From positions 2,080,001 to 2,144,000 of the forward strand of contig OY761158.1 of NCBI GenBank assembly GCA_963664405.1: DNA of 64,000 bases, written 5' to 3'. The translations under genes and the position numbers were made by a program. This stretch comes from Thermoanaerobaculia bacterium (GTDB lineage Bacteria > Acidobacteriota > Thermoanaerobaculia > Multivoradales > Multivoraceae). Shown in pieces: positions 1-64,000 of the stretch (positions are counted from its first letter, which is position 1; every line of letters begins with the position of its first letter). Under the pieces are notes generated by a model. That model had not been told where the DNA came from and ran no database searches. It saw only the letters and a list, made by a program, of their open reading frames with translations.

Positions 1-128
1 AACTGCCCCGATGGGGCTTAACTTGGTGTCCACGAAACCGTGACCGCTCAGAACCCCTGCCGAAGTCTTCGATGAGTTTGTACACTCTGCTCACCAAGGC
101 AACGTTGCGACGACCCCTTGAACCCAAG
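1..128 (+). mobile_element. Terminal 128 bp of a second, inverted copy of the IS30/IS3 chimeric element (rest lies upstream of the window)
   Basis: Exact reverse complement of 28948-29075. It ends precisely at the IS30 IR tip (...GTTGCGACGACCCCTTGAACCCAAG), followed by a different flank (CTC...). Confidence 0.9.
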
Positions 129-14382: not shown

Positions 14383-14452
14383 CAGCTATCGGAAATGATA
14401 GCTATCATTTCCGATAGCTGAACAACATGGCGCCGAGGACGGCGCATCCGGA
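14383..14452 (-). repeat. Two-hairpin intergenic repeat, copy 1 (contains a perfect 38-bp palindrome at 14383-14420)
   Basis: Minus strand reads GCGCCGTCCTCGGCGCCA...GGAAATGATAGCTATCATTTCC. Shared with the copies at 21370 and 34704. Confidence 0.8.
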
Positions 14453-15453: not shown

Positions 15454-16951
15454 GTTCGAATACCTCGGTGATGCCGAGCCAAGGCAGCCAGAGCTCGACC
15501 GGCCCCCGATTCACCGGTGTCCACAACGGCTCGCGCATTTCCGACTCCCAGTTTCGATACTCCTCGAGGAGCGCATCGACACGATCCTGATGTTCAACCG
15601 CCACGTCTTCGGCGTCCGCCTCTCCCTTCGACAAGTCGAAGAGATAGGGGGCTCGCTCGTTCACACTCACCAGCTTCCAGGATCCACTGCGAACAGCGAA
15701 GTTCTCGGCGTTACGCCAGAACAGAGAGCGCGAAGGAATGTTCTCCTCGCCGGTGAGCAGAGGCACCAGATCGATGCCGTCGAGGGTGCGATCGCTCGGC
15801 GCCTCCGCGCCGGCCAGCGCCAAAGCCGTAGGAAGAATGTCGAGCGAGCTTACCGGCGTCCGCTCGACCCTACCGGGGCTGATGCGGCCCTGCCAGGAAG
15901 CGAGAAAAGGCACCCGCACTCCGCCCTCGAAGTGGGAGAGCTTTCCACCGGTCAGCGGATCGTTGTAGCAAGCTTTGACGTAGCTCGCACAGCCGTTGTC
16001 GGAGAGGAAGAGCACCAGCGTCCTTTCCTCGAGGCCGGCGCTGCGCAGCTTGCTCATGATCGCGCCGACGCCGTCGTCGAGGGCACTGACCATGGCGGCG
16101 AAGATACGATGGGGATCGTCGGCGATGTCGGGGAACCTGTCGTAATACTCCTGGGTCACTTGTAGGGGCGTATGGGGAGCGTTGTAAGCGACGTAGAGAA
16201 AGAAAGGCTCCTGCTTATGGCGATCGATGAAGTCGACGGCCTCACGAGTGAAGGCATCGGTCAGGTACTCCTCTTCGGCCACCGGCTCCGCACCACGTTG
16301 GATCGGGTTGATCGGGGGACGATGCCGATACTCGTCCGGCCGACGGCCGCCGGCGACCGTGTGTGCCGCCACGGTGTGCACTCCCGGTTGGTCCGCGGGG
16401 TCCATGTAAAGGTTGCCGCCGTGCAAGAAGCCGAAGAACTCGTCGAAGCCGCGGTGCTGGGGTTGAAACTGCGGTTGCGAGCCCAGGTGCCACTTGCCGA
16501 CCATGCCGGTCGCATACCCCGCCTCTCCAAGCAGTGCCGGCAACATGATCTCTTCGGTCGGCGTGCCGAGGCCCGCCTCCTCGGTCCGCTCCATGTCGCC
16601 GGCACCGAACTCGTGCCCGAAGCGCTGCTGGTAACGCCCGGTCAACAACCCGGCCCGTGTCGGGGAGCACAGCGGGGCGCTGACGTAGCCGTCGGTGAAG
16701 CGGATGCCGGAAGCTGCGAGGGTGTCGATGTTCGGCGTTCTCCCACCCTCGCAACTGTAGGCACACACATCGCCGTAACCGAGATCGTCGGCAACGATGA
16801 CGACGATATTGGGCGGTGACTCGGGCTCGGGCAGGGGCTCAGGGGTCGTCTCGCCCGAAGGCGGACCACAACCGGCGAGCAAGGCAAGCGCTACACCGGT
16901 GAGAATGTAGTGAGGGCGGCGATTCCGGAAGTAAGAAAAAATCCTAGTCAT
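15443..16951 (-). CDS. Cys-type (formylglycine) sulfatase, predicted lipoprotein
   Basis: LLAGC lipobox, ADDLGYGD, CSPTRAGLLTGR, GKWHLG, SDNG, EGGVRVP. Confidence 0.92.
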   Translation of the reverse strand: MTRIFSYFRNRRPHYILTGVALALLAGCGPPSGETTPEPLPEPESPPNIVVIVADDLGYGDVCAYSCEGGRTPNIDTLAASGIRFTDGYVSAPLCSPTRAGLLTGRYQQRFGHEFGAGDMERTEEAGLGTPTEEIMLPALLGEAGYATGMVGKWHLGSQPQFQPQHRGFDEFFGFLHGGNLYMDPADQPGVHTVAAHTVAGGRRPDEYRHRPPINPIQRGAEPVAEEEYLTDAFTREAVDFIDRHKQEPFFLYVAYNAPHTPLQVTQEYYDRFPDIADDPHRIFAAMVSALDDGVGAIMSKLRSAGLEERTLVLFLSDNGCASYVKACYNDPLTGGKLSHFEGGVRVPFLASWQGRISPGRVERTPVSSLDILPTALALAGAEAPSDRTLDGIDLVPLLTGEENIPSRSLFWRNAENFAVRSGSWKLVSVNERAPYLFDLSKGEADAEDVAVEHQDRVDALLEEYRNWESEMREPLWTPVNRGPVELWLPWLGITEVFELVV

Positions 16952-22992: not shown

Positions 22993-23299
22993 AGCGAGTA
23001 GTTCTCAGGCGGGGATGGGCGAGAGAACGCGCCGCAGGCGCGTCTTCACGAGGAGGCGCTCCTCAGATGAGGGTTAGCGCAGGCCGATGTCGTCTTTCTT
23101 CTATAGAGGACCCTTCATCGAAGCCCGACGGCCGGCCGTCTCGAGACCACCAGACTCAGGGTCCGTTTTTCGGGTGAATTATGCCAACCATGGAGAAGCC
23201 TACCGGGAACCCAACCTACCTCGGCGATCTCCCCCGTCCGGGCCTTGGCCAGAGTGCCAGGCGGCTCGGCCGACTTGGCGCGCTCGGTGCCACCTCGCC

Positions 23300-26200
23300 A
23301 TGGCAATCGCTGGCCCGGTCGTGGCGGGCCATCAGTTCCTCAGGTGGCCCGACGGCGACGCGTTCACGACCTTTGGTCCAAACGAGCTGATCCTGATCGA
23401 CATCGGAGCGATCGAGTTCGTGACGAGCTGTCCCGAGATGGCGATCGAGGACTTCATCTGGCCCTTTGCCGACATCTACGTCATTCCCTCCGGGAGCGGT
23501 CAGTCGGGAGCAGCACTGAGCGATGTGACAGGCTCAAAGAACACGGCCTGGGGCGCCTCAGGGGGTGGTGTCTTCGTGTCCCAGATTCTCGGCGTCACAG
23601 CACCCTCCGGATCGCTGGGCCCGGGAACTTACGCCGTGGTCTTCGACGAGTGCCAGAACGGGATCTTCGACGGGCCCGACTTCGTAGCCGACCCGGCGTT
23701 CCGGGTGGTCATCCCCGCCGATCTACCAGCGCCCCCTATTTCCCTTGATTTCAAAGATCGTGCGCGAACACAGGCGTTCCGGCTCAGATCGATGCACGCC
23801 TTCACCAAGGCCCTCTTTTTTGTCGCCCAGCTTGCCGGCAAAGCCAAGGCACCGGGCGCGAGCCGCCCCTCCAACGAGTCCCTCGGCAGGATGATCAGCC
23901 TCGCCGGCGACGCCATCAAGAAGACCGGTCTGCGCCTCGTCGACATAAAGGCGGGGGCCCTGAGCACCATTCTCCAGGTGTTCCGCTACCACGATGCCCT
24001 GGCGAAGGATCCTCCCGATCCCGACTTCGATCAGGTCACGACCCTGGGGCCAAGGCCGGCGTTCCCGAGCCACGACCCGGACCCGCTGGTCCGGCAGGGA
24101 ATTGCCGCCAGCGCCGAGGCCAGCATCGACGAAGCCCTTCTCCTCGCGCTGCTGCAATCTCTAGAGCGCTACCAGGGGGCTCAGGCCGAAGGCGACGGCT
24201 CCTGGGGCCTCGCCCAAGCCCGCTCGGCGCTCGAATACGCCGGCCTGCTCGCCGACCACGCCGACGATAGCGCCCTCGCCTTTGCCGCTCTCGGAACCGA
24301 GGTGGCGGGGGCCGACGTCACGCTCGACGACTTCACCCTCAAGTGGGCCACTTTCTTGTCGACCGTCGAGAGCTCGGGCCTCCCCGCTGAGGAGTCCGTT
24401 ATCGCTGCGAACTTCGGCATTCCCCCAACCGTGATCGACGACGAGCTCGAAGAGCTTCTCGGCGTCGACTTTGCGTCCTTCTCCCGCGCCGCCATGGCGA
24501 CCGCCGCGGCGGACGTCGCGACTTCAACCTCCGACTTTGGCACTGGGCTCGTCACCTTCATCGGCGACATGGCAGTCCTGGTCGCCGCGATCGAAGCCGA
24601 CCCCGTGGTGCTGGACTTCTTCCCTGTCGCCGACGCGGGGGGGCCGTACGACGGCACCGTCGGCATTCCCCTCTCTCTGGACGGGTCGACCTCGAGCGGC
24701 GACATCGTCGCTTTCGCGTGGGATCTCGACGGCGACGGCGACTTCGACGACGACGCCACTGCTACGCCCACCTACGTACCCGACCGTCCCCGCCATGATC
24801 TGGTGGGCCTCGAAGTGATCACCGCCACAGGCGACAAGGACGTGGGCTACGCGTGGCTCACGGTGGCCGCGGTCAACCGGCTGCCCGAGGTTCAGGCCTC
24901 GAGTCCCGGGTTCCTCTTCGGAGACATCGAGATCGGCAGCTCGCGGACCTTCTCGGTCGTGCCCTCGGACCCGGATAGCGACCCGGTCACAGTGGAGTGG
25001 TTCTACGCAGGAGCCTTGGTTGCGAGCGGAGTCTCCGCAATCCTGACCCCACTCGCTGCGGATGCCGGCACAGCGCTTCTCGAAGCGGTCCTCGACGATG
25101 GCAAGGGTGGGCTGAGCGAGGTCGCCTGGCCCATTGCCGTTTTCTTCCCCGACCCCGACGGCGACGGCTGGTCCTCGAACCTCGACTGCGACGAGACGGA
25201 CGCGGCGGTGAATCCCGGCGCCACGGACGTCCTCAACGGCATCGACGACGACTGCAACCCGTCGACGCCAGACGGTGGGCTCCCGCCGGAGATCGTCGTC
25301 GGGTCGGCACCTTCGGGGACGGAGGGTGAGGCGGCGACCCTCGATGCGACCTTCACCCATGCGGAGCTGGCCACTGAGACCTTCACCGCCGAGGTCTCCT
25401 GGGGCGACGGCCAGAGCGAGACTGTCGGCGTCACGGCTGGCGCCGTCCATCTGCCCCACACTTGGGTCGAAGACGGCTCCTACCCGGTGGAGCTCTGCAT
25501 CCGCACCGGCGCCGGAGCCCGCGGCTGCGTGGAGAGCCGGGCCGGCATCGCCAACGCGCCGCCCACCTCGGCGCTTCAGGTCGACCTCACTCTCTGGACT
25601 CCGGAAGTCGTGCCAGGCACTTTCGCAACGACAGGATCGCAGTGGGTCGTCAGCGCCGAGCGCGACACCGTTGTGCAGGTGGTCAACGGGTCTCCGACGT
25701 TCTTCATCAGCGACTTCGAGCTCGACCCCGCGGATCAGCTCTCACTCGCCCTGAGCGTGCTGTCTGGGAGCGGGGACGACGACTTCATCGGCTTCGCCTT
25801 CGGAATGTCTACTGGAGATACCACCAATCCGACGTCCGACTACCTGCTCTTTAGCTGGAAGCGCTCAGCGCAGCGGATCGCAGGTGAGATTGCTCCCCGC
25901 GGTCTGCGCTTGGTGCGGGTCCAGGGAACCCCGACGCCGCGAAACTTCTGGTCCCACGAGGGAGCCATTCAGTTCCTACAAGACGCAGCGACTCTAGGGG
26001 ACGCGCGTTGGAACTTTGGGGTCGAGTATGCCTTCTCCTTCCGCATTCTTCCGGGCCGACTCCAGGTATTCGTGGATGGTGGGCTCGAGTTCGACGTCAA
26101 CGTCGACGTCCCTCCCGGCGGCGTCGCTTTCTACAACTATTCTCAGGGAGGCGTGCGCTACAGCGGCGTCCGGCGCGGCGCTCTTGGGGGCGACGAGGGC

Positions 26201-27436
26201 AGCTTGCTGAGCCTCGACTTACCGTTCTCAGACCCCGGCATTCTCGACGTCCATACCGCGACTGCCAACTGGGGCGACGGATCTCCGCTGAACGCTCTCG
26301 ATATCGTGGAGTCAAGTGGAGCCGGGGCGGTGTCCGGTAAGCACGCCTATCGCGACAACGGCTCCTACGACGTCGAGGTCTGCGTGCGCGACGACGAGGG
26401 TGCGGAGGTCTGTGGCACCCTCTTCGCCAGCGTCGGCAACGTTGCGCCGGTGGTCGACGCCGGCCCGGACACCGAGGCGGGACCCGTGCTCCATTTGGCG
26501 GCCTCATTCTCCGACGCTGGGGCGGACGACACCCACACGGCGACCGTGGACTGGGGGGATCTGGGCCCGGTCGAGCCGGTGCCCGTGGAGGGCGGTCCAG
26601 GGGGCGGCACTCTCGCTGCTCCACACCTCTATGCGAGCGACGGTCTCTTCGACGTCGAGGTCTGCGTCACCGACGACGACGGCGACCAAGGCTGCGACAC
26701 TCGCCAAGTGACCATGAGCGCTCTGAACCAGCCTCCGATTCTCACCCTCGACACGCCTCCGCAGGCGGACGAGGGCAGCACGATCCTCTACTCCCTCTCC
26801 TTCGTGGACGCAAACCCCAGCGACGTTCATCAAGCGAGCGTCGATTGGGGAGACGGGACATTTCCCGAAGCGCTCTCTCCGTTCAATGATGGCGGCAGCG
26901 TGGGCTTCGGTACCGGTAGCCATATCTACCTTGATGACGGCCTCTTCCCGATCGTGATGGAGATCTGCGACCCTGAACCGGCGTGTGCATCAGGGAACAG
27001 CGAGGCGACCATCCACAACGTTCCTCCAAGCGTTCTCGGCGGGATCGCGGTCGACGGCGACCTGGTGACCCTTACCGGGACGTTCACCGATCCAGGCATC
27101 CTCGACACTCACTTCGGCATGATCGATTGGGGGGACGGCAGCTCGTCGCCGGCAGTCCTGGGCCCATTCGGGAGCTCCGGGGCAACTCTCGCTGGTACCC
27201 ACACCTACAGCGCCTCCGGCGCTTATCCGATCTTGGTCTGTGTGAGCGACGACGACGGTGGCGAGGGCTGTGTGAACTTGGAGGCGACTCTCAGCGCGGA
27301 CCGAGAAGCCGTCCCGATCCCCACTCTGGAGGGCCTTGGCCTAATGCTGCTGGCCCTGCTGCTGGTCGTCGCGTCGCTGACGATCCAGCGTTGGTCCCGC
27401 CGCCGGCCAAGACACAGCTCGAGGTCGCGCTCCTAG
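23300..27436 (+). CDS. Large PKD-repeat surface protein with putative metal-binding motif, lectin/TSP-C-like domain and IPTL-CTERM sorting signal
   Basis: ADAGGPY PKD, DGDGW..DCDE..NGIDDDCN motif, DDDFIGFAFG, five F.D.G..D.H.A..xWGD repeats, C-terminal VPIPTL-TM-RRR. The true start is probably about 23190 via a frameshift. Confidence 0.82.
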   Translation: MAIAGPVVAGHQFLRWPDGDAFTTFGPNELILIDIGAIEFVTSCPEMAIEDFIWPFADIYVIPSGSGQSGAALSDVTGSKNTAWGASGGGVFVSQILGVTAPSGSLGPGTYAVVFDECQNGIFDGPDFVADPAFRVVIPADLPAPPISLDFKDRARTQAFRLRSMHAFTKALFFVAQLAGKAKAPGASRPSNESLGRMISLAGDAIKKTGLRLVDIKAGALSTILQVFRYHDALAKDPPDPDFDQVTTLGPRPAFPSHDPDPLVRQGIAASAEASIDEALLLALLQSLERYQGAQAEGDGSWGLAQARSALEYAGLLADHADDSALAFAALGTEVAGADVTLDDFTLKWATFLSTVESSGLPAEESVIAANFGIPPTVIDDELEELLGVDFASFSRAAMATAAADVATSTSDFGTGLVTFIGDMAVLVAAIEADPVVLDFFPVADAGGPYDGTVGIPLSLDGSTSSGDIVAFAWDLDGDGDFDDDATATPTYVPDRPRHDLVGLEVITATGDKDVGYAWLTVAAVNRLPEVQASSPGFLFGDIEIGSSRTFSVVPSDPDSDPVTVEWFYAGALVASGVSAILTPLAADAGTALLEAVLDDGKGGLSEVAWPIAVFFPDPDGDGWSSNLDCDETDAAVNPGATDVLNGIDDDCNPSTPDGGLPPEIVVGSAPSGTEGEAATLDATFTHAELATETFTAEVSWGDGQSETVGVTAGAVHLPHTWVEDGSYPVELCIRTGAGARGCVESRAGIANAPPTSALQVDLTLWTPEVVPGTFATTGSQWVVSAERDTVVQVVNGSPTFFISDFELDPADQLSLALSVLSGSGDDDFIGFAFGMSTGDTTNPTSDYLLFSWKRSAQRIAGEIAPRGLRLVRVQGTPTPRNFWSHEGAIQFLQDAATLGDARWNFGVEYAFSFRILPGRLQVFVDGGLEFDVNVDVPPGGVAFYNYSQGGVRYSGVRRGALGGDEGSLLSLDLPFSDPGILDVHTATANWGDGSPLNALDIVESSGAGAVSGKHAYRDNGSYDVEVCVRDDEGAEVCGTLFASVGNVAPVVDAGPDTEAGPVLHLAASFSDAGADDTHTATVDWGDLGPVEPVPVEGGPGGGTLAAPHLYASDGLFDVEVCVTDDDGDQGCDTRQVTMSALNQPPILTLDTPPQADEGSTILYSLSFVDANPSDVHQASVDWGDGTFPEALSPFNDGGSVGFGTGSHIYLDDGLFPIVMEICDPEPACASGNSEATIHNVPPSVLGGIAVDGDLVTLTGTFTDPGILDTHFGMIDWGDGSSSPAVLGPFGSSGATLAGTHTYSASGAYPILVCVSDDDGGEGCVNLEATLSADREAVPIPTLEGLGLMLLALLLVVASLTIQRWSRRRPRHSSRSRS

Positions 27437-27518: not shown

Positions 27519-28091
27519 ATGGGGCAGGCGGGCGAGATCACCCGGCTCTTCGAGGCCGCTGCGGCCGGCGACGAGTCGGCCTTTGATGCCATCGTAGCCC
27601 GGGTCTACGGCGAGCTCGAAGACCTGGCGGGGCGGCAGATGAGGCACCGCTTCGGCGGCCTGTCCGGTCTGACCCTTGAGCCTGCGGCTCTGGTCAACGA
27701 AACTCTTCTCCGGGTCCTTCGCGAGCCCCGGTCCTTCGCCAACCGCCGGCACTTCTTCGCCTTTTGTTCCAGGGTCATGCGCCGTGTCCTGGTCGACTAT
27801 CAGCGCTCCCGGGGTCGCCAGAAGCGCGGCGGTGGAATGCTCAAGGTCACCCTGACCGAGCTATCGGCCACACTCTCCGACCCCGTGGCCGCGAATGCCG
27901 GAGAGGTTGTGGAGGCCCTCGAGCGCCTGGAGCATCTCGACCCACGCAAGAGCGAGGTCGTCCAGCTGCGGGTCTTCTGGGGGCTCGAGATGAAAGAGAT
28001 CGCAGCCACCCTGGATCTGTCCCTGGCGACAGTCGAGCGGGACTGGCGCTTCAGCCGATCCTGGTTGGCAAAAGAGCTGCGCGTTGCCTGA
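27519..28091 (+). CDS. ECF sigma factor, kinase-associated type (TIGR02999-like)
   Basis: EITRL..GD, LTLEPAALVNE, RRHFFA, QKRGG, EIAATLDLSLATVERDWRFSRSWL. Overlaps the kinase start. Confidence 0.9.
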   Translation: MGQAGEITRLFEAAAAGDESAFDAIVARVYGELEDLAGRQMRHRFGGLSGLTLEPAALVNETLLRVLREPRSFANRRHFFAFCSRVMRRVLVDYQRSRGRQKRGGGMLKVTLTELSATLSDPVAANAGEVVEALERLEHLDPRKSEVVQLRVFWGLEMKEIAATLDLSLATVERDWRFSRSWLAKELRVA

Positions 28092-29025
28092 GTCTCCACC
28101 CGAGGCAGTCCCTCTCTCAAGCGGTAGCCGGAGCACTTCACCGACCGCTCAGCGCTTTGTCCGCCTCGAAGAACTGTTCCAGCAAGTCGTCGACCTGGAC
28201 TCTGCCTCGCGCGCCGAAAGGTTGGCGCGGCTCTGTCCCGAGAGCTCGAGCCTACGAGAGTCGGTCGAGCGCCTGGTCGATCTCGACCGGATGACTGGAT
28301 TCGGCACCTTCGCCGGGGCGGGTGTCGCCAGCTCACAGGACCCCCTCGCCTCCCCCGACGCTGTCATCGGCAGCTACAAGGTTATCGGTCAGATCGGGAC
28401 GGGAGGCATGGGCATCGTCCTGGAGGCTGAGCAGTCGGCGCCTCTGCGACGCAGAGTGGCGATCAAGCTCGTGCGCCGGGGCCTCGCTAGCGACTCGATC
28501 GTCGAACGCTTCGAAGCCGAATGCCAGACCCTCGCGGTTCTCGACCATCCCTACGTAGCGAGGGTGTTCGAGGCAGGGTCGAGCGAGGACGGTCGGCCCT
28601 ACTTCGTCATGGAACTGGTGAAGGGAGTGCCGATCTCGCGCTTCTGCGATGCTCGCGAGCTGTCGACGAGGCAACGCTTGGAGCTCTTTCTACGAGTCTG
28701 CGATGGAGTGCAGCACGCCCATCAGAAAGCAATCCTCCATCGCGACCTAAAACCCACCAACGTTCTGGTGGTCGAGACCGAAGACGGCCCGAGCCCGAAG
28801 ATCATCGACTTCGGCATCGCCAGGACTCTCGACGAGGGGGCAGAGCTCGGCCGCACCCGGGTTGGGCAGGTGATTGGCACGCCAGCCTACATGAGCCCGG
28901 AGCAGGCCAGCGGGTCGGGAAGTGTGGCTTTGGACGTACGCAGCGACCTTGGGTTCAAGGGGTCGTCGCAACGTTGCCTTGGTGAGCAGAGTGTACAAAC
29001 TCATCGAAGACTTCGGCAGGGGTTC

Positions 29026-29439
29026 TGAGCGGTCACGGTTTCGTGGACACCAAGTTAAGCCCCATCGGGGCAGTTCCTATTCTGCATCAGTTCGGGTAGT
29101 CAGCTTCGGACGAGGCTGTGCGAGGTTCGGGGAGCGCAGCCTCCCTTCGGATCCGACCGCCGGTCGCGCGTGAGTTCACGCTGCCCCTTCGAAGGCCTCG
29201 GGGCTCAGGAATCCGAGCGTCGAATGCTGGCGTCTCAGGTTGTAGAACACTTCGAGGTAAGAAACCGCTTCGTCGTGAGCTCGCTGACGAGTCTCGAAGG
29301 GTCGGTCCCAGACCTCGGTCTTGAGACTGTCGAAGAAGCTCTCCAAGACCGCATTGTCATAACAATTTCCGACGCCGGACATGCTGCAGCGAAACCGCAG
29401 CTCAGCCAGCCGATCCTGGTAAGCCTTCGAGGCGTACTG
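29026..29439 (-). mobile_element. IS3-family remnant (transposase C-terminus 29176-29439 plus terminal IR)
   Basis: QYASKAY..SMSGVGNCYDNAVLESFFDSLKTE..FYNLRRQHSTLGFLSP. TG-starting end TGAGCGGTCACGGTTTCGTGGACACC at 29026. Confidence 0.85.
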
Positions 29440-29446
29440 CTTGGGT

Positions 29447-30844
29447 TCAAGGAGTCGTCGCAGCGTTGCCTTGGTGAGCAGAGTGTACAAGCTCATCGAA
29501 GACTTCGGCAGGGGTTCTCCAGCCGAGGGTCTTGCGGGGTCGGCCGTTGAGTGCGAGCGCGACCGCGGCGAGGTCGTCGCAGGAGTATCTGACAAGGTCG
29601 GTGCCCTTCGGGAAGTACTGGCGTAGTAGTCCGTTGGTGTTCTCGTTGGTGCCCCGCTGCCAGGGGCTGTGCGGGTCGCAGAAGTAGATCGCGAGGCCGG
29701 TATCGACGCGGAGTTGAGCGTGTTGAGCCATCTCGGCGCCCTGGTCCCAGGTCAAGGACCGGCGGAGCTGCTCGGGCAGCGTGGTGATTGACACCGCGAT
29801 CGCGTCACGGACGGCTTCGGCGCCGTGCCCGGCGAGGGCCGGCCCGTTCTTCACCCTCGATTCGGTCCCGTGCCCTTCCATGCGGGGCAGGTGCAGCAGC
29901 ATCGTGAACCGCGTAGTGCGTTCGACGAGGGTCCCGATCGCTGAGCTCTCGAGCCCGACGATCAGGTCGCCTTCCCAGTGACCCGGCACGGCCCTGTCGC
30001 CGGCTTCGGCGGGGCGTTCGCTGATCATGATCTCCGGAGTTACAAATTTCTTGCCTCTCCCCCGGGTTCGCGCATGCGGCACTCGTAGCGCTCGCCCGGT
30101 TCGCAGGCACGCGACGAGCTCGCGTTTGAGGGCTCCTCGACCTTGGATGTAGAGCGCTTGGTAGATCGCCTCGTGAGAGATCCGCATCGACTCATTATGG
30201 GGGAAATCAATCCGAAGCCGGTTCGAGATCTGCTCCGGACTCCAGGATTTCGCCCAACGCCGATCCTGGCGACGGCCGTGCCGACGGCCGATCCAACGCA
30301 CATCCGGACCCGGCACCAGCTCCCCGTCAGGCCTTGCGATCACGCCGGCGAGGCGGTTCTGCACGTACTCACGCAAGGCATCGTTCGCGGCAAGCTTGGA
30401 GACCTTCGGACGGCTGGCGCGCCGCTCCGCGTGCCACTGCGCAGTCGTGGCCCGATAAGTTACGGCACGGCTGCGAGTCGCCGCGTTGCGGCGCAGCTCC
30501 CGCGAAATCGTCGACGGTGAACGACCCAGGCGGCGAGCGATCTCACGTACCCCAACATGCTGAGCGTGAAGGATGGCGATCTCTTCACGCTCGGCGAACG
30601 ACAGATAACGCCCCGACACCGGAGCCAACGAGATAGGTCGCATTCCACCAGCTTGCCTGAACCATCTCGACCCGACAGCCGGCGACACCCCAGCCTCTGT
30701 TGCGGCGTCCTCGCTGGACGCCCCACGAGCGATCGTCTCCCAGAACCGGATCCGGTCCTCGCGCCGCGCTGTCGAGGGCCGGCCAGGTGACCGCATCTGG
30801 CCACGCATCGCTCGAATCGCACCCTGACACTTGCCAACTCCCAT
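29447..30844 (-). CDS. IS30-family transposase
   Basis: RYLSFAEREEI, WSPEQI, SHEAIYQ, GHWEGDL, TWDQG, PWQRGTNENTNGLLRQYFPKG, RPRKTLGW. Confidence 0.95.
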   Translation of the reverse strand: MGVGKCQGAIRAMRGQMRSPGRPSTARREDRIRFWETIARGASSEDAATEAGVSPAVGSRWFRQAGGMRPISLAPVSGRYLSFAEREEIAILHAQHVGVREIARRLGRSPSTISRELRRNAATRSRAVTYRATTAQWHAERRASRPKVSKLAANDALREYVQNRLAGVIARPDGELVPGPDVRWIGRRHGRRQDRRWAKSWSPEQISNRLRIDFPHNESMRISHEAIYQALYIQGRGALKRELVACLRTGRALRVPHARTRGRGKKFVTPEIMISERPAEAGDRAVPGHWEGDLIVGLESSAIGTLVERTTRFTMLLHLPRMEGHGTESRVKNGPALAGHGAEAVRDAIAVSITTLPEQLRRSLTWDQGAEMAQHAQLRVDTGLAIYFCDPHSPWQRGTNENTNGLLRQYFPKGTDLVRYSCDDLAAVALALNGRPRKTLGWRTPAEVFDELVHSAHQGNAATTP

Positions 30845-32964
30845 CGAAACACCTCCATCACGAGATGTTGCGACGACCAGTTGAATCCGCCGACGTCTAC
30901 TCGCTCGGAGTGATGCTCTACGAGCTCCTCGTCGGGAGCCATCCCTTTTTCGAGGGGCCGGACGACGAACCGTCCTTCGACGAGCTCAGCCGCCGGTTGC
31001 GCGAGCAGGAGCCCCCAAGGCCTTCCTCCAAAGTGATGGGCTCGGGGGACGCCGAGCTTCTGGCAGCTCGGGTGCGGGGCACCGTCCCGGCCGCCTTGAG
31101 CCGGACTCTGCGGGAGGAGCTCGACTGGATTGTCCTACGAGCACTGGAGCGTGAACCGGATCGACGCTATGGATCGGTATTGGAGCTTGCCGGCGACCTC
31201 CGCCGGCATCTGCAACACCTGCCGGTCCTCGCCGGCCCTCCCGACTCGATCTACCGCCTGCGCAAATTCGTGCGTCGCAACCGCTGGCCGGTGACCGGCG
31301 CTGCGGCTCTGGCTCTGGCCCTCGTGGCTGCCGTCGCCGGCACCTCGGTCGGCATGGTGCGCGCGCGCAGGGCAGAAACTGCGGCCCAGGCCGAGGCCGA
31401 AGTCGCCGAGGAAGTGACTCGGCTGCTCACGGATCTCTTTGCAGCTGACAACCCCTACCAGTACGGCAGCGAGCGACCCACCGTGGAGGAGATCCTCGAG
31501 GCGGCCTCACAGCGGCTCGAAGAGGGGAAGGTCCGGGACCCGCGAGTTCGCCGCAGGCTCTCTCGGGCGCTCGCAGATCTGGCTCTGGCTCACGGTCACT
31601 TCGACCAGGCCAGGGACCTTCTCGAGAGGGCCGCAGGAGACCTCTCGAGTCGTGCCGCCGACTCGAACGACTCGCTAGAGATCCGTCTCAAGCTGGCTAC
31701 CGTCGATCGCCAATCAGGCCGACTGCAAGAAGCCAGCGACCGTCTCGAGGAGCTTCTACCTGAAGCCCGCTCGCGTCTGGGCGAGAAGGACCCTCGCCTC
31801 GGGCTCGTTCTCCTGGAACTAGGGCTGGTCCAGGCCGACCTGCAGCGCCCACGCCAAAGCGAGACCTGGTTTCGACAGGCTCTCTCGGTATTTCGAAGCT
31901 CGGATGCAGCTCCCGCAGAGCTCGCCACGTCCCTCTCACAACTGGCGCTGGTGAGCGATGAGCCGGAGGAGTGTCTGGAGCTCGCCGAAGAGGCTTTGGA
32001 GCTACGGCGGCAGGTTCTAGCTCCCGACCACCCGAACATTGCCCACAGCCTCGGCACCGTCGCTCGCTGCGCGCTGCGCCGGGGGGACTACCTCACCGCG
32101 TACGGCTTCCACAAGGAAGCAGCCGAGACCTACGAGCGTGCCCTGGGGCCAGACAACCCGCGGACGGCGGTCGAGAAGTCCTGGCTGGCCAACGCCGCGG
32201 CAGCCTTGGGCCGTTTTGTCGAGGCCCGCGCACTGGTGGAGGCCGCGATCGAAGCAAAGGATGCCCGCTACGGGGCCGAGCATGTCCAGACAGCGGTCTC
32301 AGTCAACGATACGTGGCTGTACTTCCCAGGCGTGGTCGACCGCACCGGCGTTCGGGAGCGCCTGGAACAAGCAGTCGCCGTACTGATGGGCGAGCTCGGT
32401 GTCGAACATACTTGGCTCTGGTGGGTGCGTCACACCCTGGCCAACGTTCAGGAAGACGTGGGCATGGTCGTTGAAGCCCGCCAGGGCTACGAGAGTGTCC
32501 TGCGCTGGCGCGAAGAGGCGGGGTCCCCCGAGTACTCCATTCTCGCCCTGCTGCTGCTGGACCTAGCCAACCTCGAGCGTCGCTCCGGCCGCCTCGATCG
32601 AGCCGAAGAGTACTTGGCGCGGGCCCTTATCCTCTACGACGAAGGCGGTCAGGATCCTCGAGAGCACGGGCGAGCTCAGGTTGCGCACGCGACCCTTCTC
32701 GCCGCGCACGGTCGAGTGGACGAAGCCGACCAGGTCTTCGCCACGGCCCAAGACTTCTACCAGCGGAGAACCCGCGGACCGCGAACCTATCTGGACATGC
32801 GTTACGACGCCGCGTGGTGGGCAGTCCGGGGCGATCGCACCAGGGCCGCCGAGGCCGTCCGAGACCTTTTGGAGATGGGCGTTCACTCCGACTTCCTCAG
32901 TCGGCTCCCTGAGCTGCGCGCGCTGTTCAGAGAGCAGGCGCCCAGCCCTGTATGATGAAAAACC

Positions 32965-46799: not shown

Positions 46800-49462
46800 T
46801 GCCCGCACGCGCCAAATCGATCGCCGCTTGGATGGCCGTCGCAATGCTCGTCGGCGGCGGCTGCGCCGATCGCGCCCAGCGCACCGAGCCGACGTCCACG
46901 GATGACTACCTCTCCACGGAGCTACGGCGGGAGGTCGAGAAGCTCAAGCGCGACGTTGCCCAGTCGCCAACGACCGCGGCGACCCTGCCGGAGCGGGTAG
47001 ACGTTCTGTGGCCGTGGGCCAACGCCTACGCGCTGACCGGCGGCCCGATGCCGGTCAACTTCCCGCTCGAGGTGACCGTCGTGCGCTGGGGAGCCGCCGA
47101 CGATCGAGGGCCCGACGACACTATCGTCGAGGACATGGACTTCTTCACCCTCACCCGCCTGTCGTCGGTGATGGACGGCTACGTTCGCGAGTTCACGCTC
47201 AAAGATGAGACCCCCGATGCCCTCGGCGAGCTCCGCCTCGATCCCGGCACCCCTCTCGCGGCCGGGAGCTGGACGACACTGCAGGTGATCTGGACGGTGG
47301 GGTCGGTGCCGATGCAGCCTGGTGGCGCTCTTCTCATGGGGACCCAGTACATGGGCGACCAGGGCCGTGAACAGACCGGCGATCCGGCCGGCGACCACTT
47401 CGTCTCGATCGCGTCGTCGAATCCGGAGGCCCGCTTCGAGCCGACGGAGGTGCCGCTCTCGGGGCTCCACGGCGGCTTCGTAGTCGAAAGACCGACGCCC
47501 GCGTACCGCCTGCTCGGCCCTCAGCTCGAGCCCGGTGACACTGTCACTCTCACCTACGGCGACCGCTCGGGCGGATCTCGTGGGCTGAAGGTACAGAGCT
47601 TCACCACCGATGCTCTGATCCTCCCGGTCTATCTCGATCTCGACGGCCAGGGCCGCTTCGTCACGCCGAGCTGGCCCAGTGTTCCCATCCTCGGCGGCGA
47701 GATCCGGTCGATCTGGCCGCTCGCACCGTCGGTGGTCGACCCCGGCGAGACCTTCAGCCTCGGAATCCGTAGTCAGGACGGTCTCTACAACCGCGCCACC
47801 GGCGCCATCCCCGGCTACAGGGTGCACCTCGATGGCGAGCTGGTCGCCGAGGTCGCCGCCGGGACCGCACCGGTCGTTTCGGTCCCGAACCTCGCGATCG
47901 ACGAGCCGGGGGTCCACCGCCTCGAAGTCGCCTCGGCCGACGGCAAGCTCCGAGCTACGAGTAATCCAATCTGGGTCCGCGACAGCGCTCAGACCCCTCG
48001 CATTCTCTGGGGCGAGACGCACGGCCATAGCGGCTTCGCCGAGGGCCAGGGCACGGCGGAGGGCTACTTTCTCTACGCCAGAGAGGACTCCCGCCTCGAC
48101 TTCGTCACTCTCTCGGAGCACGACTTCTGGATGGACGATTTCGAGTGGAAAAGGCTGCAGGACCTCTCGCGAGAAGCGACAGCGAGTGGGCTGGTAGCGT
48201 TCCTCGGCTACGAGTGGACGGCCATCCGTTCGCGCGGCGGACACCACAACGTTCTCTTCCGCACCCCCGACCACAACCGCGTGCCCCTCCAGGAGGCCGG
48301 GCGGCTATCTGCTCTCTATGAAGGCCTGCGCCGAGAGGTGGACCCCGACGATGTCGTCGTCATTCCACACGCCCATATGGCCGGGGACTGGACCCAGAGC
48401 GATGCCGATCTCGAGCGCCTCACCGAGATCTATTCGATGCACGGCACCTTCGAGTGGTTCGGCAATATGTATCTGCGTAACGGCTGGGAGATCGGCTTCG
48501 TCGCTGCGTCGGACGACCACCGTGCTCAACCGGGGGCGCCCCACGGCCTCTATCGCCTGACCCTGGCCGGTAGCGGGGGACTGGCCGCGGTGCTGGCGCC
48601 GGAGCGCACCCCCGACGCCATCTTCGACGCCATGCGCTCGCGCTCGGTCTACGCGACGTCCGGCCCGAGGATTCTCCTCGATGCCAAGCTCAACGGGCAC
48701 CCGATGGGGACTCGTCAACCCGACGCCACGGAGCGGAAGATCGAGTGCCGAGTTTTCGGAACCTCCCCGATCGATCGTATCGACGTGGTGAAAAACGGCG
48801 AGATCGTCATGACCAGGCGCTACCTCGGGACCGCGCTCGACGGCGACCCTTGGGTGCTGGTCGGCTTCGAGTCGGAGTCCGAGGTCTTCACTCTGGACAC
48901 CACCGACAACCCGCGCCCGTACCGGCGCTGGAAAGGCACGATCGAGGTGGAGGGGGCAGACGTCACTGGCGTCTCGGGGCCGGGGCTCGACAACATCATC
49001 GTCGATGCCTTCGAGGTCGACCCGGAGAGCCCGAACAAGATCCATTTCAACGTCCTGACCCGAGGTCGGCGCGACGCTCTACTGGTCAAGCTGGCTGACG
49101 CCTCGACCACCACCACCTTCAGCATCCACCTCGAAGAGACCACGGAAGAGGGCCTCGGTCGGCCTGAGACCATCCGTCCCGCCCAGGACCTGCCGGGGGA
49201 CGATCTCACTCTGCCCTTCACCGACCTTGTGGGCGGCCGACTCGAGCGCGAGCTAAGGGTCGGTGAGCACACCGATCGCGTCTCCATCGAGATCGTCGAT
49301 CCCGAGGCGGCGCTGGACCGCGACTTCGAATTCACCGACCTCGAGAGCCCACGGCCCGGGGACTACTACTACGTCAGGGTCACCCAGCTCGACAGCGGCC
49401 GGGCCTGGTCGAGTCCGTTCTGGGTTGGCGAGAAGGACACCGAGCCATCAGGAGAACGCTGA
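46796..49462 (+). CDS. Long DUF3604/CehA-McbA-like PHP metallohydrolase lipoprotein
   Basis: VGGGC lipobox-like, WGETHGHS, SEHD, GYEWT, GGHHNV, IPHAH, ASDDH, YATSG, YYYVRVTQ..AWSSPFW. Confidence 0.8.
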   Translation: MMPARAKSIAAWMAVAMLVGGGCADRAQRTEPTSTDDYLSTELRREVEKLKRDVAQSPTTAATLPERVDVLWPWANAYALTGGPMPVNFPLEVTVVRWGAADDRGPDDTIVEDMDFFTLTRLSSVMDGYVREFTLKDETPDALGELRLDPGTPLAAGSWTTLQVIWTVGSVPMQPGGALLMGTQYMGDQGREQTGDPAGDHFVSIASSNPEARFEPTEVPLSGLHGGFVVERPTPAYRLLGPQLEPGDTVTLTYGDRSGGSRGLKVQSFTTDALILPVYLDLDGQGRFVTPSWPSVPILGGEIRSIWPLAPSVVDPGETFSLGIRSQDGLYNRATGAIPGYRVHLDGELVAEVAAGTAPVVSVPNLAIDEPGVHRLEVASADGKLRATSNPIWVRDSAQTPRILWGETHGHSGFAEGQGTAEGYFLYAREDSRLDFVTLSEHDFWMDDFEWKRLQDLSREATASGLVAFLGYEWTAIRSRGGHHNVLFRTPDHNRVPLQEAGRLSALYEGLRREVDPDDVVVIPHAHMAGDWTQSDADLERLTEIYSMHGTFEWFGNMYLRNGWEIGFVAASDDHRAQPGAPHGLYRLTLAGSGGLAAVLAPERTPDAIFDAMRSRSVYATSGPRILLDAKLNGHPMGTRQPDATERKIECRVFGTSPIDRIDVVKNGEIVMTRRYLGTALDGDPWVLVGFESESEVFTLDTTDNPRPYRRWKGTIEVEGADVTGVSGPGLDNIIVDAFEVDPESPNKIHFNVLTRGRRDALLVKLADASTTTTFSIHLEETTEEGLGRPETIRPAQDLPGDDLTLPFTDLVGGRLERELRVGEHTDRVSIEIVDPEAALDRDFEFTDLESPRPGDYYYVRVTQLDSGRAWSSPFWVGEKDTEPSGER

Positions 49463-58556: not shown

Positions 58557-61256
58557 ATGGTAATAACCGCTGGAGACTTCGGTTTGTCTATTCTCGAGAT
58601 CAGGAGCTTGGGCCTGACCGCCCTTCTCGGAGCGTCCCTCGGTTGCGGACCCACGCCGACAACGGGACCGGCTGCATCCGACGACTACCTGTCTCCTCAG
58701 CTGCGCGAGCGGGTCGAAGAGGTCAAACGAGAGCGCGCCGAGGAGCCCACCAGCCCCGACAATATCTACGAGCGGGTGGATGTGCTGTGGGATTGGGCCA
58801 ATGCCTACGCAATGACCGGCGGGCCACTCCCGGTCAATTTCGCTCTCGACATCGCGGTGATGCGGTGGGCCGAGGCCGACGGTTCCGCCGCCGACGTACG
58901 TCTGGTCAACGACGTGGAACTGGCCACCGTCAATGACTACGTGCCCTACATCGACAGCTACCTGCGCGAGCTCCAGATCAAGGACGAGCAACCGGGCGCT
59001 ATCGGCACCCTCCACTTCGTCTCCGACGAGCCGCTGACGGTGGATACCTACACCACTGTGGAGATGGTCTATACCGTCGGTACCATGCCGATGGCGGTGG
59101 GCGGCGGGGCGATAGCTGGGCGCCAATGGCTGGCCGATGTCAACGACTATCAGAACACCGATCCCACCGCGCCCAACTATGTGACCGCGCGGGTGTCACG
59201 GTCCGAAGCCCGCATCGATGCGGTCATGGTCCCCCTGGTCGGACCGCACGGCTCGCAGCGCTTCCCCAAGCCGACCCCTGCCTTCCTCCTCGAGGGGGCG
59301 GCTCTCCAGCCCGGCGACACTCTCACCGTGACCTACGGCGATCGCTCGGGAGGCTCGCCAGGGATACGAGTGCAAGGCTTCACCACCGATGCCCTCCTCT
59401 TCCCGCTCTATCTCGACCTGGAAGGGAAAGACCACTGGCTGACGCCGGTGTGGCCACCGCTGGAGGTGGTCGGCGCAGAAGTCGCCGGCGTGCGCGTTCT
59501 GGCGCCGTCGGTGGTCGCCGCTGGAGAACCTTTCGATCTCACGGTGCGAAGCGAGGACGCAGCAACGAATCGCGCGACCGGCTCCATCCCGACCTACGAA
59601 GTACTTCTGGACGCCAAGGTCGTTGCCGAGGTCGAAGCCTCCGAGGATGCCCTGGTGCTGGTCGACGAGCTCACAATCGAAGAACCAGGGACCTACCGCT
59701 TCGTGGTGCGCTCCAAGGGCGGGGACCTCGACGCCGTTGCCATCAGCAACCCGGTGTGGGTCGAGGCAAACCCCGAGCGGCTGGTGCTCTGGGGTGAGAC
59801 CCACGGCCACACCGATTTCGCCGAAGGGCAAGGAACGCCCCAGGCCTACTTTCGCTACGGCGTCGAGGACTCACGCCTCGACTTCTTCACTCTCTCCGAG
59901 CACGACTTCTGGCTCGACGACTACGAGTGGACCGTGCTCCAGGAGCTCAGTCGAACCACCACCGCGGAGGGCCGAGCGATCGCTTTCCTCGGCTACGAGT
60001 GGACTCCGACGAGAAAGCGCGGCGGCCACCACAACGTGCTCTTTCGCACCCCCGACAACCGAGAGCGCGTGCCGGTCCAGGAGGCCCATCGCCTGCCTCT
60101 CCTCTGGCAGGGACTGCGGGCCGCAAACGAGGAAGAAGACCTGCTGATCATCCCCCACGCTCACTCCGCCGGCGACTGGACCCAGAGCGACGGCGGGCTC
60201 GAACGAGTGGTCGAGATCCACTCGGTGCACGGAAGCTTCGAGTGGTACGGCAACATGTTCCTGCGCAATGGCTTCGAGGTCGGATTTCTCGCCGCTTCGG
60301 ACGATCATCGAGCGAAGCCGGGAGCGCCAAGGGGACTCACCCAGTCCTCCCTCATCGGCCGACCAGGTCTCGCCGCTGTAAGAGCGCCGGAGAAGAGCCC
60401 CGACGCGGTCTTCGACTCGCTCCGCAGTCGCTCGGTCTACGCGACCTCCGGACAACGTATCCTCCTCGACGCCACCTTGAACGGCCACGAGATGGGAACC
60501 CGCCAGCCGATGGCGGACGAGCGCCAGATTCTGTGCCGTGTGTCGGGGACCTCGCCGATCGATCACATCGATGTGGTCAAGAACAGCGAAGTGGTCTTCT
60601 CTCGCAGCTACCTGTCAACGCCGCTCTCCTCTCGCTCCTGGCTCCAGGTCGGATTCGAATCTTCATCCGAAGTCTTCACTCTCGACTCTGTCGACAACCC
60701 GAGGCCCTACCGGATCTGGCAGGGCACCTTGCGCATCTCGGGCGCAACCGCGATCGGCTTCGAGGCCATCGGTTTCGACACCCCGGCCCTGGACACGATC
60801 GAAGAGGTAGAGCCTGGCCTCTACCTCTTCCGCATCTACACTCGCGGCCGGCGGGAGACAGTGCTCTTCGAGCTCGAAGGAGCCACCTCGTCGACCACCC
60901 TCGACTTCGAGCTCGAGCCCACTCGCGAGTACGGTCTGGGCCAGGGCCACGAGCGCCTCGCCCTCGACATTCCAGGCACCGAAGTCCGCCTGAGCCTTGC
61001 CGATCTCGAGAACGATCGCCTCGAGCGCGAGGTTCCGTTCTTGGAGCACACCGATCGGCTGAGTCTCCAGGTGGTGCAGCCGAATAGCCCCCTGGACCAG
61101 GAGTTCGAGTACTCCGATATGGAGCCAACGTCGCCGGGCGACTACTACTATGTCCGGGTGACTCAGCTCGATGGTGGTCGTGCATGGTCCAGCCCCTTCT
61201 GGGTAGGCTCGAAACCACAGCCATCATCGGCCGCTGCGGCAGGGGGAGGCTTCTAG
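58557..61256 (+). CDS. Long DUF3604/CehA-McbA-like PHP metallohydrolase lipoprotein (paralog of 46796)
   Basis: SLGC lipobox-like, WGETHGHT, SEHD, GYEWT, IPHAH, ASDDH, AWSSPFW. Collinear with 46796. Start uncertain. Confidence 0.8.
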   Translation: MVITAGDFGLSILEIRSLGLTALLGASLGCGPTPTTGPAASDDYLSPQLRERVEEVKRERAEEPTSPDNIYERVDVLWDWANAYAMTGGPLPVNFALDIAVMRWAEADGSAADVRLVNDVELATVNDYVPYIDSYLRELQIKDEQPGAIGTLHFVSDEPLTVDTYTTVEMVYTVGTMPMAVGGGAIAGRQWLADVNDYQNTDPTAPNYVTARVSRSEARIDAVMVPLVGPHGSQRFPKPTPAFLLEGAALQPGDTLTVTYGDRSGGSPGIRVQGFTTDALLFPLYLDLEGKDHWLTPVWPPLEVVGAEVAGVRVLAPSVVAAGEPFDLTVRSEDAATNRATGSIPTYEVLLDAKVVAEVEASEDALVLVDELTIEEPGTYRFVVRSKGGDLDAVAISNPVWVEANPERLVLWGETHGHTDFAEGQGTPQAYFRYGVEDSRLDFFTLSEHDFWLDDYEWTVLQELSRTTTAEGRAIAFLGYEWTPTRKRGGHHNVLFRTPDNRERVPVQEAHRLPLLWQGLRAANEEEDLLIIPHAHSAGDWTQSDGGLERVVEIHSVHGSFEWYGNMFLRNGFEVGFLAASDDHRAKPGAPRGLTQSSLIGRPGLAAVRAPEKSPDAVFDSLRSRSVYATSGQRILLDATLNGHEMGTRQPMADERQILCRVSGTSPIDHIDVVKNSEVVFSRSYLSTPLSSRSWLQVGFESSSEVFTLDSVDNPRPYRIWQGTLRISGATAIGFEAIGFDTPALDTIEEVEPGLYLFRIYTRGRRETVLFELEGATSSTTLDFELEPTREYGLGQGHERLALDIPGTEVRLSLADLENDRLEREVPFLEHTDRLSLQVVQPNSPLDQEFEYSDMEPTSPGDYYYVRVTQLDGGRAWSSPFWVGSKPQPSSAAAAGGGF

Positions 61257-62968: not shown

Positions 62969-64000
62969 ATGAGATTGCCAAAGAACCGATCCGTTGCCGC
63001 GCCACTCCTGGTCGCGCTTGCCGCGTGCTCTCCCGCTCCGGCGCCGGACCCCGAGCCGCCCGAGCAAGCACCACCGCTAAACGTGGTGCTGATCATCGCC
63101 GACGATCTCGGCTACGGAGATGTCTGCGCCTACAGCTGTGAAGGAGGCCTGACACCGAACCTCGACGCCCTGGCCGCCGGCGGTGCCCGCTTCGACAGGG
63201 GCTATGTCGCGGCCCCGGTGTGCAGTCCCTCTCGCGCCGCGCTGCTCACCGGGCGCTATCAGCAACGCTTCGGTCACGAGTTCACCGTCGGGCCGCTGGC
63301 AAGAGCCGAAGAAGACGGACTCGGCACTCCCACCACCGAGATCCTGCTCCCTCGCGTGTTACAACAGAACGGCTACACGACAGGAATGGTCGGGAAGTGG
63401 CACTTGGGCTCGAACCCCGAGTTCCTGCCGCAGGCACGCGGCTTCGACGAGTTCTTCGGCTTTCTCCACGGCTCCAACCTCTACACCCCGACCCTGGAAG
63501 GCCCGGGAATGCACTTCATCGATGCCGATCCGAGCCCGCCGCGCACCAGCAGGCGAGAGAGCGATGCGATCTTCCGCGGGACGGAAGTGGTCGAGGAGCC
63601 GGAGTACCTCACCGATGCCTTCACTCGAGAGGCCATCGATTTCCTTGCCCGACGCGGCCAGGATCCGTTCTTTCTCTATGTCGCCTACAACGCGCCGCAC
63701 ACGCCGCTTCAGGCCACCGACCGCTACTACGATCGCTTCCCCCACATCGAGGACGAAGCCAGCCGCATCTTCGCCGCGATGGTCAACGGGGTCGACGAAG
63801 GGATCGGGGAGATCCGCTCCACTCTCCGCGAGATCGGAGTCGACGATCGCACCCTGATCATCTTTCTCTCCGACAACGGCTGTGCCAAATACACGGCGGC
63901 CTGCTCCAACGGACCGTTTCAGGGCGGCAAGCTCATCCACTTCGAGGGCGGCGTCCGTGTGCCCTTCATTCTCAACTGGCCCGCCGCCATCCGCCCCGGT
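62969..64000 (+). CDS. Cys-type sulfatase lipoprotein, runs off the window end (paralog of 15443-16951)
   Basis: Translated by hand: LAAC lipobox, ADDLGYGDVCAYSCEGG, CSPSRAALLTGRYQQRFGHEF, GKWHLG, SDNG, EGGVRVP. Confidence 0.9.
   Translation, partial: MRLPKNRSVAAPLLVALAACSPAPAPDPEPPEQAPPLNVVLIIADDLGYGDVCAYSCEGGLTPNLDALAAGGARFDRGYVAAPVCSPSRAALLTGRYQQRFGHEFTVGPLARAEEDGLGTPTTEILLPRVLQQNGYTTGMVGKWHLGSNPEFLPQARGFDEFFGFLHGSNLYTPTLEGPGMHFIDADPSPPRTSRRESDAIFRGTEVVEEPEYLTDAFTREAIDFLARRGQDPFFLYVAYNAPHTPLQATDRYYDRFPHIEDEASRIFAAMVNGVDEGIGEIRSTLREIGVDDRTLIIFLSDNGCAKYTAACSNGPFQGGKLIHFEGGVRVPFILNWPAAIRPG

Follow-up and report, generated by a model that had tools for sequence, protein, structure and literature searches.

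Anatomy of the 1944-bp unit

In a 64,000-nucleotide stretch of a Thermoanaerobaculia genome (contig OY761158.1, positions 2,080,001 to 2,144,000; hereafter the window, to which coordinates refer where no other locus is named), a gene for a Ser/Thr kinase with TPR repeats is interrupted by a 1944-bp segment made of parts of two families of insertion sequences (IS). The segment (28948-30891) consists of an IS30-family element, a 414-bp tail of an IS3-family element and a 78-bp second IS30 right end, and it has probably transposed as one unit. On the minus strand, the direction of the transposase, the order is left repeat (from 30891), transposase, inner right repeat, IS3 3' end and the 78-bp stub, which runs to 28948. 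This order and these coordinates had been proposed in a sequence-only reading of the window, as had the GAC triplets around the whole 1944 bp and the CTG at the inner flank; all of them were confirmed. The features of the locus are the following.

28084-28947, plus strand: 5' part of the interrupted kinase-TPR gene (Pkinase, E 1.3e-31; 123/128 residues identical to the allele P0122)
28945-28947, plus strand: first copy of the 3-bp target repeat GAC, from the sequence
28948-29025, minus strand: 78-bp stub of the second IS30 right end; the right inverted repeat that the unit uses is the tip of the stub (about 28948-28973), judged by different flanks in six places and by the invariant A kept at position 24
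29026-29051, minus strand: IS3-family terminal inverted repeat, from its TG start and its likeness to the IS3 ends in two relatives, L005 and L009
29026-29439, minus strand: IS3 3' fragment (cargo), with 87 orfB codons (29176-29439), which begin at the Q of HxDxGxQ-Y and run through to the stop, and the non-coding end, from profile matches
29440-29465, minus strand: inner IS30 right inverted repeat, no use seen; A>G at position 24 (29463) and G>A at position 14 (29453), from comparison with relatives
29447-30844, minus strand: IS30-family transposase of 465 amino acids with helix-turn-helix (HTH) and integrase core, from profile matches and a ratio of non-synonymous to synonymous change (pN/pS) of 0.21 against a copy elsewhere, L002
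30866-30891, minus strand: left inverted repeat of the unit, of the same end type as that given for ISLxc3 in the accessible text of PMC2516522
30892-30894, plus strand: second copy of the target repeat GAC, from the sequence
30895-32955, plus strand: 3' part of the kinase-TPR gene (331/335 residues identical to P0122 over the shared part)
30895-30915, minus strand: antisense stretch of the kinase gene with a likeness to the IS3 target, HHSERVD against HHSDRGS in IS3 (top 0.36 % of site scores)

Excision of the unit together with one GAC (1944 + 3 bp) restores a kinase-TPR frame of 974 codons without an internal stop. The database protein P0122, which is 96-99 % identical to the two gene halves, reads DVRSD-VYSLG across the insertion site, and judged by this protein an empty allele of the gene exists. 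The match of the three GAC bases is weak when taken alone (p about 0.02). An extracytoplasmic function (ECF) sigma factor gene (TIGR02999, 27519-28091) overlaps the start of the interrupted gene, and the insertion probably disables this sigma-kinase pair.

The IS30 part (29440-30891) is complete. Its transposase matched NF033563 with 246.9 bits (cut-off 80) and HTH_38 with an E value of 1.4e-20, and the open frame carries the motifs WEGD (290), LTWDQG (364) and NENTN (400), which we take to be the DDE catalytic triad of IS30 transposases. Of the bases of the left end, 19 of 22 were complementary to the outer right end, and the two fit 41 ends of relatives. The stub matches the inner right end (29440-29518) at 76 of 79 bases, the mismatches lying at positions 14, 24 and 52 from the tip. 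The orfB codons of the IS3 tail matched positions 286-369 of NF033516 (E 3.5e-27, under the full-length cut-off), and the tail also matched rve_2 and rve_3. As it covers no more than the final 84 of the 369 model positions and has a single end, the IS3 piece is a passenger and not an IS3 element. Its terminal repeat is one base shorter than those in L005 and L009, and the joint between stub and IS3 falls exactly at the IS3 tip (terminal TG...CA).

A frame of 139 codons (29176-29595, minus strand) links the IS3 tail with the IS30 end, the latter read in an alternate frame. A function for it was considered and found no support, as the cargo showed no sign of selection. A promoter scan returned 0 sites and a terminator scan 3, against 1.5 expected by chance, and an Rfam search of the window found nothing.

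Evidence of movement as one unit

Further copies were sought in a GTDB scan of one genome per species, using an exact pattern that covered the left, inner and outer ends. The scan covered genomes other than that of the window, given that, a few bases next to the element aside, the window flanks matched none of the loci. It returned ten loci, representing eight distinct places in four records. The full unit was present at four of these places, in two other assemblies (98.2-100 % identity), each time with the 492-bp extension. The five full copies, with their differences from the window copy and their flanks, are as follows.

Window copy: in the kinase gene; repeat GTC/GTC in the direction of the element; clean insertion
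L001: 2,754-bp contig of a Bryobacterales metagenome-assembled genome; 0 differences; flanks CAA/CAA
L002: 1.61-Mb Acidobacteriota contig (CAXWPL010000005.1); 36 differences; flanks AAC/CAA, changed last base, second IS3 tail
L003/4: same 1.61-Mb contig; 1 difference, a frameshift; CAG/CAG, inside an IS3 orfA frame (HTH_Tnp_1)
L007/8: same 1.61-Mb contig; 2 differences; GTG/GTG, inside a glyoxalase-family frame

Three of the five (window, L003/4 and L007/8) inserted cleanly, each between 3-bp repeats of its own in an otherwise intact gene; the chance of three such matches is about 9e-6. None of the full copies ends at the inner repeat, though the scan pattern also matched inner-type ends; all five read on into the IS3 tail. 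The earlier proposal that the 1944 bp transposes as one unit by its outer end is thus borne out by five full copies at different sites, by three duplications of their own and by the empty allele. The distribution suggests transfer of the unit between species, the bin of L001 resting on a short contig.

The window itself holds a second outer end, which the sequence-only reading had missed.

1-128, plus strand: 50 bp of IS3 end followed by the 78-bp stub (51-128), cut by the window edge; 128/128 bases identical to 28948-29075, in opposite orientation; flank CTC at 129-131, intergenic

Since the recorded contig of the kinase fragment measures 6.78 Mb, we infer that it is the edge of the window that cuts this copy off. 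Its flank differs from that of the kinase-gene copy; it reads CTC and then TAC, which fits the target consensus on that side, and lies upstream of a gene for an AMP-binding enzyme (293-1915).

The local anatomy, including GAC around the whole, would also be obtained if IS3 and a further IS30 had inserted into a plain IS30 in the kinase gene and recombination had removed the middle, the whole never moving as a unit. Such events may have been the first step that made the unit. As the origin of what is seen here they are very improbable, given the second outer end in the window and the full copies in other assemblies, which are nearly identical but lie at unrelated sites and differ in their duplications; purely local recombination as the whole story is ruled out by the multiple clean sites. 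That the assembly collapsed IS30 and IS3 repeats into an artefact is more improbable still. The L001 copy, with mismatched flanks on its short contig, may itself be a hybrid of this kind, but both junctions recur three times in the 1.61-Mb contig, with copy-specific differences, and once in the second assembly, and the window flanks restore one gene on a long recorded contig. Misassembly was therefore rejected.

No match to the unit was found in E. coli genomes. The 573-bp junction region was without a match in plasmids and had only seven short partial matches in phages; no plasmid or phage record covered 80 % of the query.

The remaining four places of the scan comprised one remnant (L010) and three relatives of 91-92 % identity (L005, L009 and L006). 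The remnant (2601-2725 of L010) is a 125-bp plain IS30 right end with an intact repeat and a non-IS3 flank near an IS6-type transposase; it is likely close to the ancestral short form. In L006 (91.9 %) the match ends at position 1237. In L005 and L009 (OZ251997.1; 90.6 %, 1767 bp) a different, non-coding insert of about 330 bp precedes the right repeat, and right-side extension may thus recur in that lineage. At 4545-5240 of L002, a second IS3 tail (95.9 %) that starts CAA TAC lies behind the unit and is broken just before its terminal repeat by another element-like sequence without a Pfam match, presumably IS5-like. This second tail may represent a second round of end capture. The landing site of L003/4 in its IS3 orfA frame reads DQEVQ-H, a look-alike of the orfB motif.

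The inner right end

The inner right end had been proposed to have decayed by two changes. Ends of relatives were collected with a pattern allowing 3-4 mismatches, which heavily decayed ends could escape: 41 in a first set (20 left, 21 right; L009 was dropped as identical to L005, and the left end of L023 was not found) and 20 further ones. Position 24 is A in all of them (41/41 and 20/20), and G in the inner ends of all five full copies; the outer copy, the stub, retains the A. The change at position 14 was present in 3 of the 41 and 1 of the 20 ends, two of them from cleanly inserted copies (L011 and L024), and is for that reason probably harmless. Decay by both changes was accordingly rejected, position 14 being a natural variant; the proposal holds for position 24 only, where A>G looks damaging and would presumably disable the inner end. 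As every copy carries this change, it cannot be dated relative to the capture of the outer end.

If both right ends worked, the element would move as either 1452 or 1944 bp and the short form would simply have gone unsampled. The occurrence of the position-14 change in working ends fits this, as do the plain IS30 right end with a non-IS3 flank in L010 and a scan that took one genome per species outside the window's genome. The repeat of L010 is, however, of the intact outer type and not of the inner type, position 24 is invariant in 61/61 ends, and 0/5 full copies stop at the inner end. Two working right ends are accordingly quite unlikely.

Insertion at an IS3 codon

At the inner junction, the right repeat is followed by CAG TAC, the Q-Y of the IS3 motif HxDxGxQ-Y. 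Whether this is a habit of the clade can be read from its plasmid members, of which 143 records were found at E<=1e-120. Thirty relatives were taken: 20 hand-picked for genus spread among 60 of 1,736 records, and ten from 60 of the 143 records, chosen without IS3 annotation. A clean 3-bp repeat was present in 24/30. In these sets, which are hand-picked and come from plasmids rich in IS3, 20 of the 24 clean insertions lay at the Q codon of HxDxGxQ^Y (13/15, and 7/9 in the set without IS3 annotation), 12 in the same and 8 in the opposite orientation, and at least one flank was of the IS3-codon type in 26/30. None of 123,196 window positions, taken as the random expectation, fits the pattern. Two IS3 copies in the genome of L005 and L009 were hit at this same codon in opposite orientations.

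A target matrix built from 15 IS3 sites was scored on 61,607 window positions. The clean sites of the unit ranked in the top 0.36 % (window), 0.039 % (L003) and 0.032 % (L008); two plasmid sites outside IS3 reached the top 0.005 % and 0.66 %. These ranks suggest that what the clade recognises is a DNA sequence. On these sites, the Q codon of the orfB motif in IS3 is the clade's target in both orientations, and insertions elsewhere fall at sequences that resemble it; the kinase site is by its sequence a mimic of the IS3 target on the antisense strand. The inner junction is explained by this targeting. Of the successive nested insertions proposed earlier, the inner one therefore stands, and is not a matter of chance, while their order (decay before or after capture, insertion or deletion at the outer junction) we can only infer.

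The plasmid relatives measured 1449-1505 bp (n = 29). Within 745-913 bases no second right end was found in any of the 29 testable ones (0/29), and the composite is hence local to the present lineage. Six plasmid relatives (L018, L021, L023, L026, L030 and L039) had flanks that did not match, were missing or were rearranged, for example one and the same IS3 half on either side of the element or imperfect 3-bp repeats, which suggests recombination between copies or imperfect repair.

In the open-access literature no report of an IS30 group targeting IS3 genes was found; subscription journals, ISfinder, TnCentral and supplements lay outside this search. The accessible parts of PMC2770080 and PMC4133298 contain nothing on IS3 targeting. 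Single cases may be present in database entries or supplementary tables.

Proposed origin and mechanism

The 1944-bp segment is best read as an IS30-family element with an extended right side, which has transposed as one unit and which arose and moves in the way set out here; we give this reading a probability of about 0.87. First, one IS30 copy would have entered an IS3 element at the preferred Q codon. The right end of that IS3, at its exact tip, would then have been fused to a second IS30 copy in direct orientation, 78 bp before the right end of the latter, either by IS3 insertion or by an adjacent deletion made by IS3. In a third step, either the IS30 transposase would bring the inner left end together with the outer right one, or the middle would be lost by recombination of the two copies. 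The pairing is plausible because, according to the accessible text of PMC9333248, circles of IS30 arise when ends are joined, whether these belong to a single copy or to two direct copies. Finally, A>G at the invariant position 24 would disable the inner right end, so that only the long form spreads. Movement would be by copy-out-paste-in, via a circle with a junction of left repeat and outer repeat, with the IS3 piece as a passive passenger.

The same mobile unit could have had another origin, as a composite of IS30, IS3 tail and IS30 that lost most of its downstream copy by deletion. This has a precedent in the same family, Tn6330 derivatives that kept 42 or 90 bp of ISApl1 (PMC5821093, accessible text), and leads to the same end product. 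However, the joint at the terminal TG...CA of IS3 points to a cut by IS3 transposase, and a composite would otherwise need a second IS30 that exactly abuts the IS3 tip. We consider this origin unlikely.

Between the window copy and L002, the transposase differs by 15 synonymous and 9 non-synonymous changes (pN/pS 0.21, p 0.0002) and is, by this comparison, under purifying selection. In the cargo, 1 synonymous and 4 non-synonymous changes were counted, that is, no selection was seen. The second IS3 tail of L002 (9 synonymous, 5 non-synonymous) looks like that of a recently working IS3.

Several observations weigh against the proposed reading. The contrast between transposase and cargo is not significant (Fisher p 0.14). 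Two full copies are not clean insertions: L002 has AAC/CAA flanks and an altered terminal base, and L001 has CAA on both sides, yet IS3 orfB on its left and a glutathione S-transferase (GST)-like gene on its right. With flanks from two different genes, L001 was rejected as a clean insertion; it could be a two-copy hybrid or else the nested precursor itself, given that the reading frame of its left flank runs on into the cargo tail. The transposase of the L003 copy is frameshifted by a 1-bp deletion. The scan used one genome per species and an exact pattern, which missed both right ends of L002 and which plain 1452-bp copies could escape. The target matrix mixes target preference with coding conservation. 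None of the clean unit sites (0/3) lies at the IS3 orfB codon itself, two half-sites being of that kind, and the unit thus seems less strictly bound to IS3 than its plasmid relatives.

A wider reading, to which we give slightly less than an even chance, is that this widespread IS30 clade is an undescribed parasite of IS3, which would read the DNA encoding a conserved motif of the catalytic core and knock out the transposase of its host. Nested stacks would then be routine and give rise to longer elements by end capture, a step that could be repeated, as in the second tail of L002, with growth in modules of 492 bp. The clade-wide targeting may matter more than the unit. If the IS30 group does specifically hit IS3 transposase genes, it would naturally hold in check an IS family that is among the largest, and many split IS3 annotations would be accounted for. 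The clade is also a source of a DDE transposase whose target can be defined. The unit would represent the birth of a new insertion sequence, caught while each step can still be read, from targeted nesting and the acquisition of a spare end to the loss of the inner one and the spread to new sites.

Other features of the window

Self-comparison of the window revealed a perfect 38-bp palindrome (14383-14420) and two paralogous pairs of about 68 % DNA identity (47525-48939 with 59304-60727, and 15906-16847 with 63047-63966). A repetitive frame of 1449 codons (23087-27436) ends in IPTL and a hydrophobic stretch; from its look, we take it to be a surface protein with a C-terminal sorting signal.

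Comparison with known systems

By its transposase, ends and duplication the unit is an IS30-family element, and it is not a plain IS, an IS3 element or a classical composite transposon. It has a single transposase that matches the family model, in an open frame with DDE motifs, terminal inverted repeats of about 26 bp and a 3-bp target duplication (3/5 full copies, 24/30 relatives), within the 2-3 bp of the family. It departs from the compact length of the family, having 1944 bp and two right ends. A complete orfA/orfB is absent and only one IS3 terminal repeat is present, which sets it apart from IS3 elements, and its second IS copy of only 78 bp sets it apart from classical composite transposons. 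The single-ended composites of the Tn6330-derivative type are matched in full: a complete IS, cargo, a stub with an intact right repeat and a duplication around the whole at several sites.

Targeting of one element by another is known from IS4321 and IS5075, which target Tn21 repeats, and from IS231, which targets Tn4430. These elements belong to other families, and their targets are terminal repeats and not a coding motif of a transposase. ISEcp1 of the IS1380 family captures flanking DNA by means of secondary, chance look-alike ends. As in ISEcp1, a right end located further out carries flanking DNA in the present unit; unlike ISEcp1, the unit uses a true second end.

The following comparisons refer to the accessible text of each paper. 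ISLxc3 is a plain IS30-family element of 1,511 bp with an NTG duplication at two copies and no conserved target (PMC2516522). The unit resembles ISLxc3 and ISLxx5 in ends that begin with GGC and CTT, the GTCGTYGCAAC core, the 3-bp duplication and a transposase with HTH and DDE; it differs from ISLxc3 by its 492-bp extension and by the IS3 target of its clade (PMC2516522). With IS30 of E. coli it shares the family, sequence-specific hot spots and presumably the joining of ends of two direct copies into circles (PMC9333248). The hot spots of E. coli IS30 are near-palindromic or are its own repeats, with a 2-bp duplication, whereas the preferred target here is a coding motif in another IS family (PMC9333248).

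The closest likeness in architecture is to the single-ended form of Tn6330 (ISApl1-mcr-1), with an IS30-family copy, cargo and a short stub with an intact right repeat (PMC5821093). Derivatives in which 42 or 90 bp of the downstream ISApl1 remain are regarded as mobile; as in the unit, a duplication surrounds the whole and mobility was deduced from several sites (PMC5821093). In the unit, unlike in these derivatives, the cargo is a dead IS3 fragment and not a selected gene, the stub is joined at the IS3 tip, the inner end is apparently disabled and the duplication is 3 bp and not 2 (PMC5821093). The architecture thus has a precedent in Tn6330 derivatives, and the targeting of IS3 is the more surprising result.

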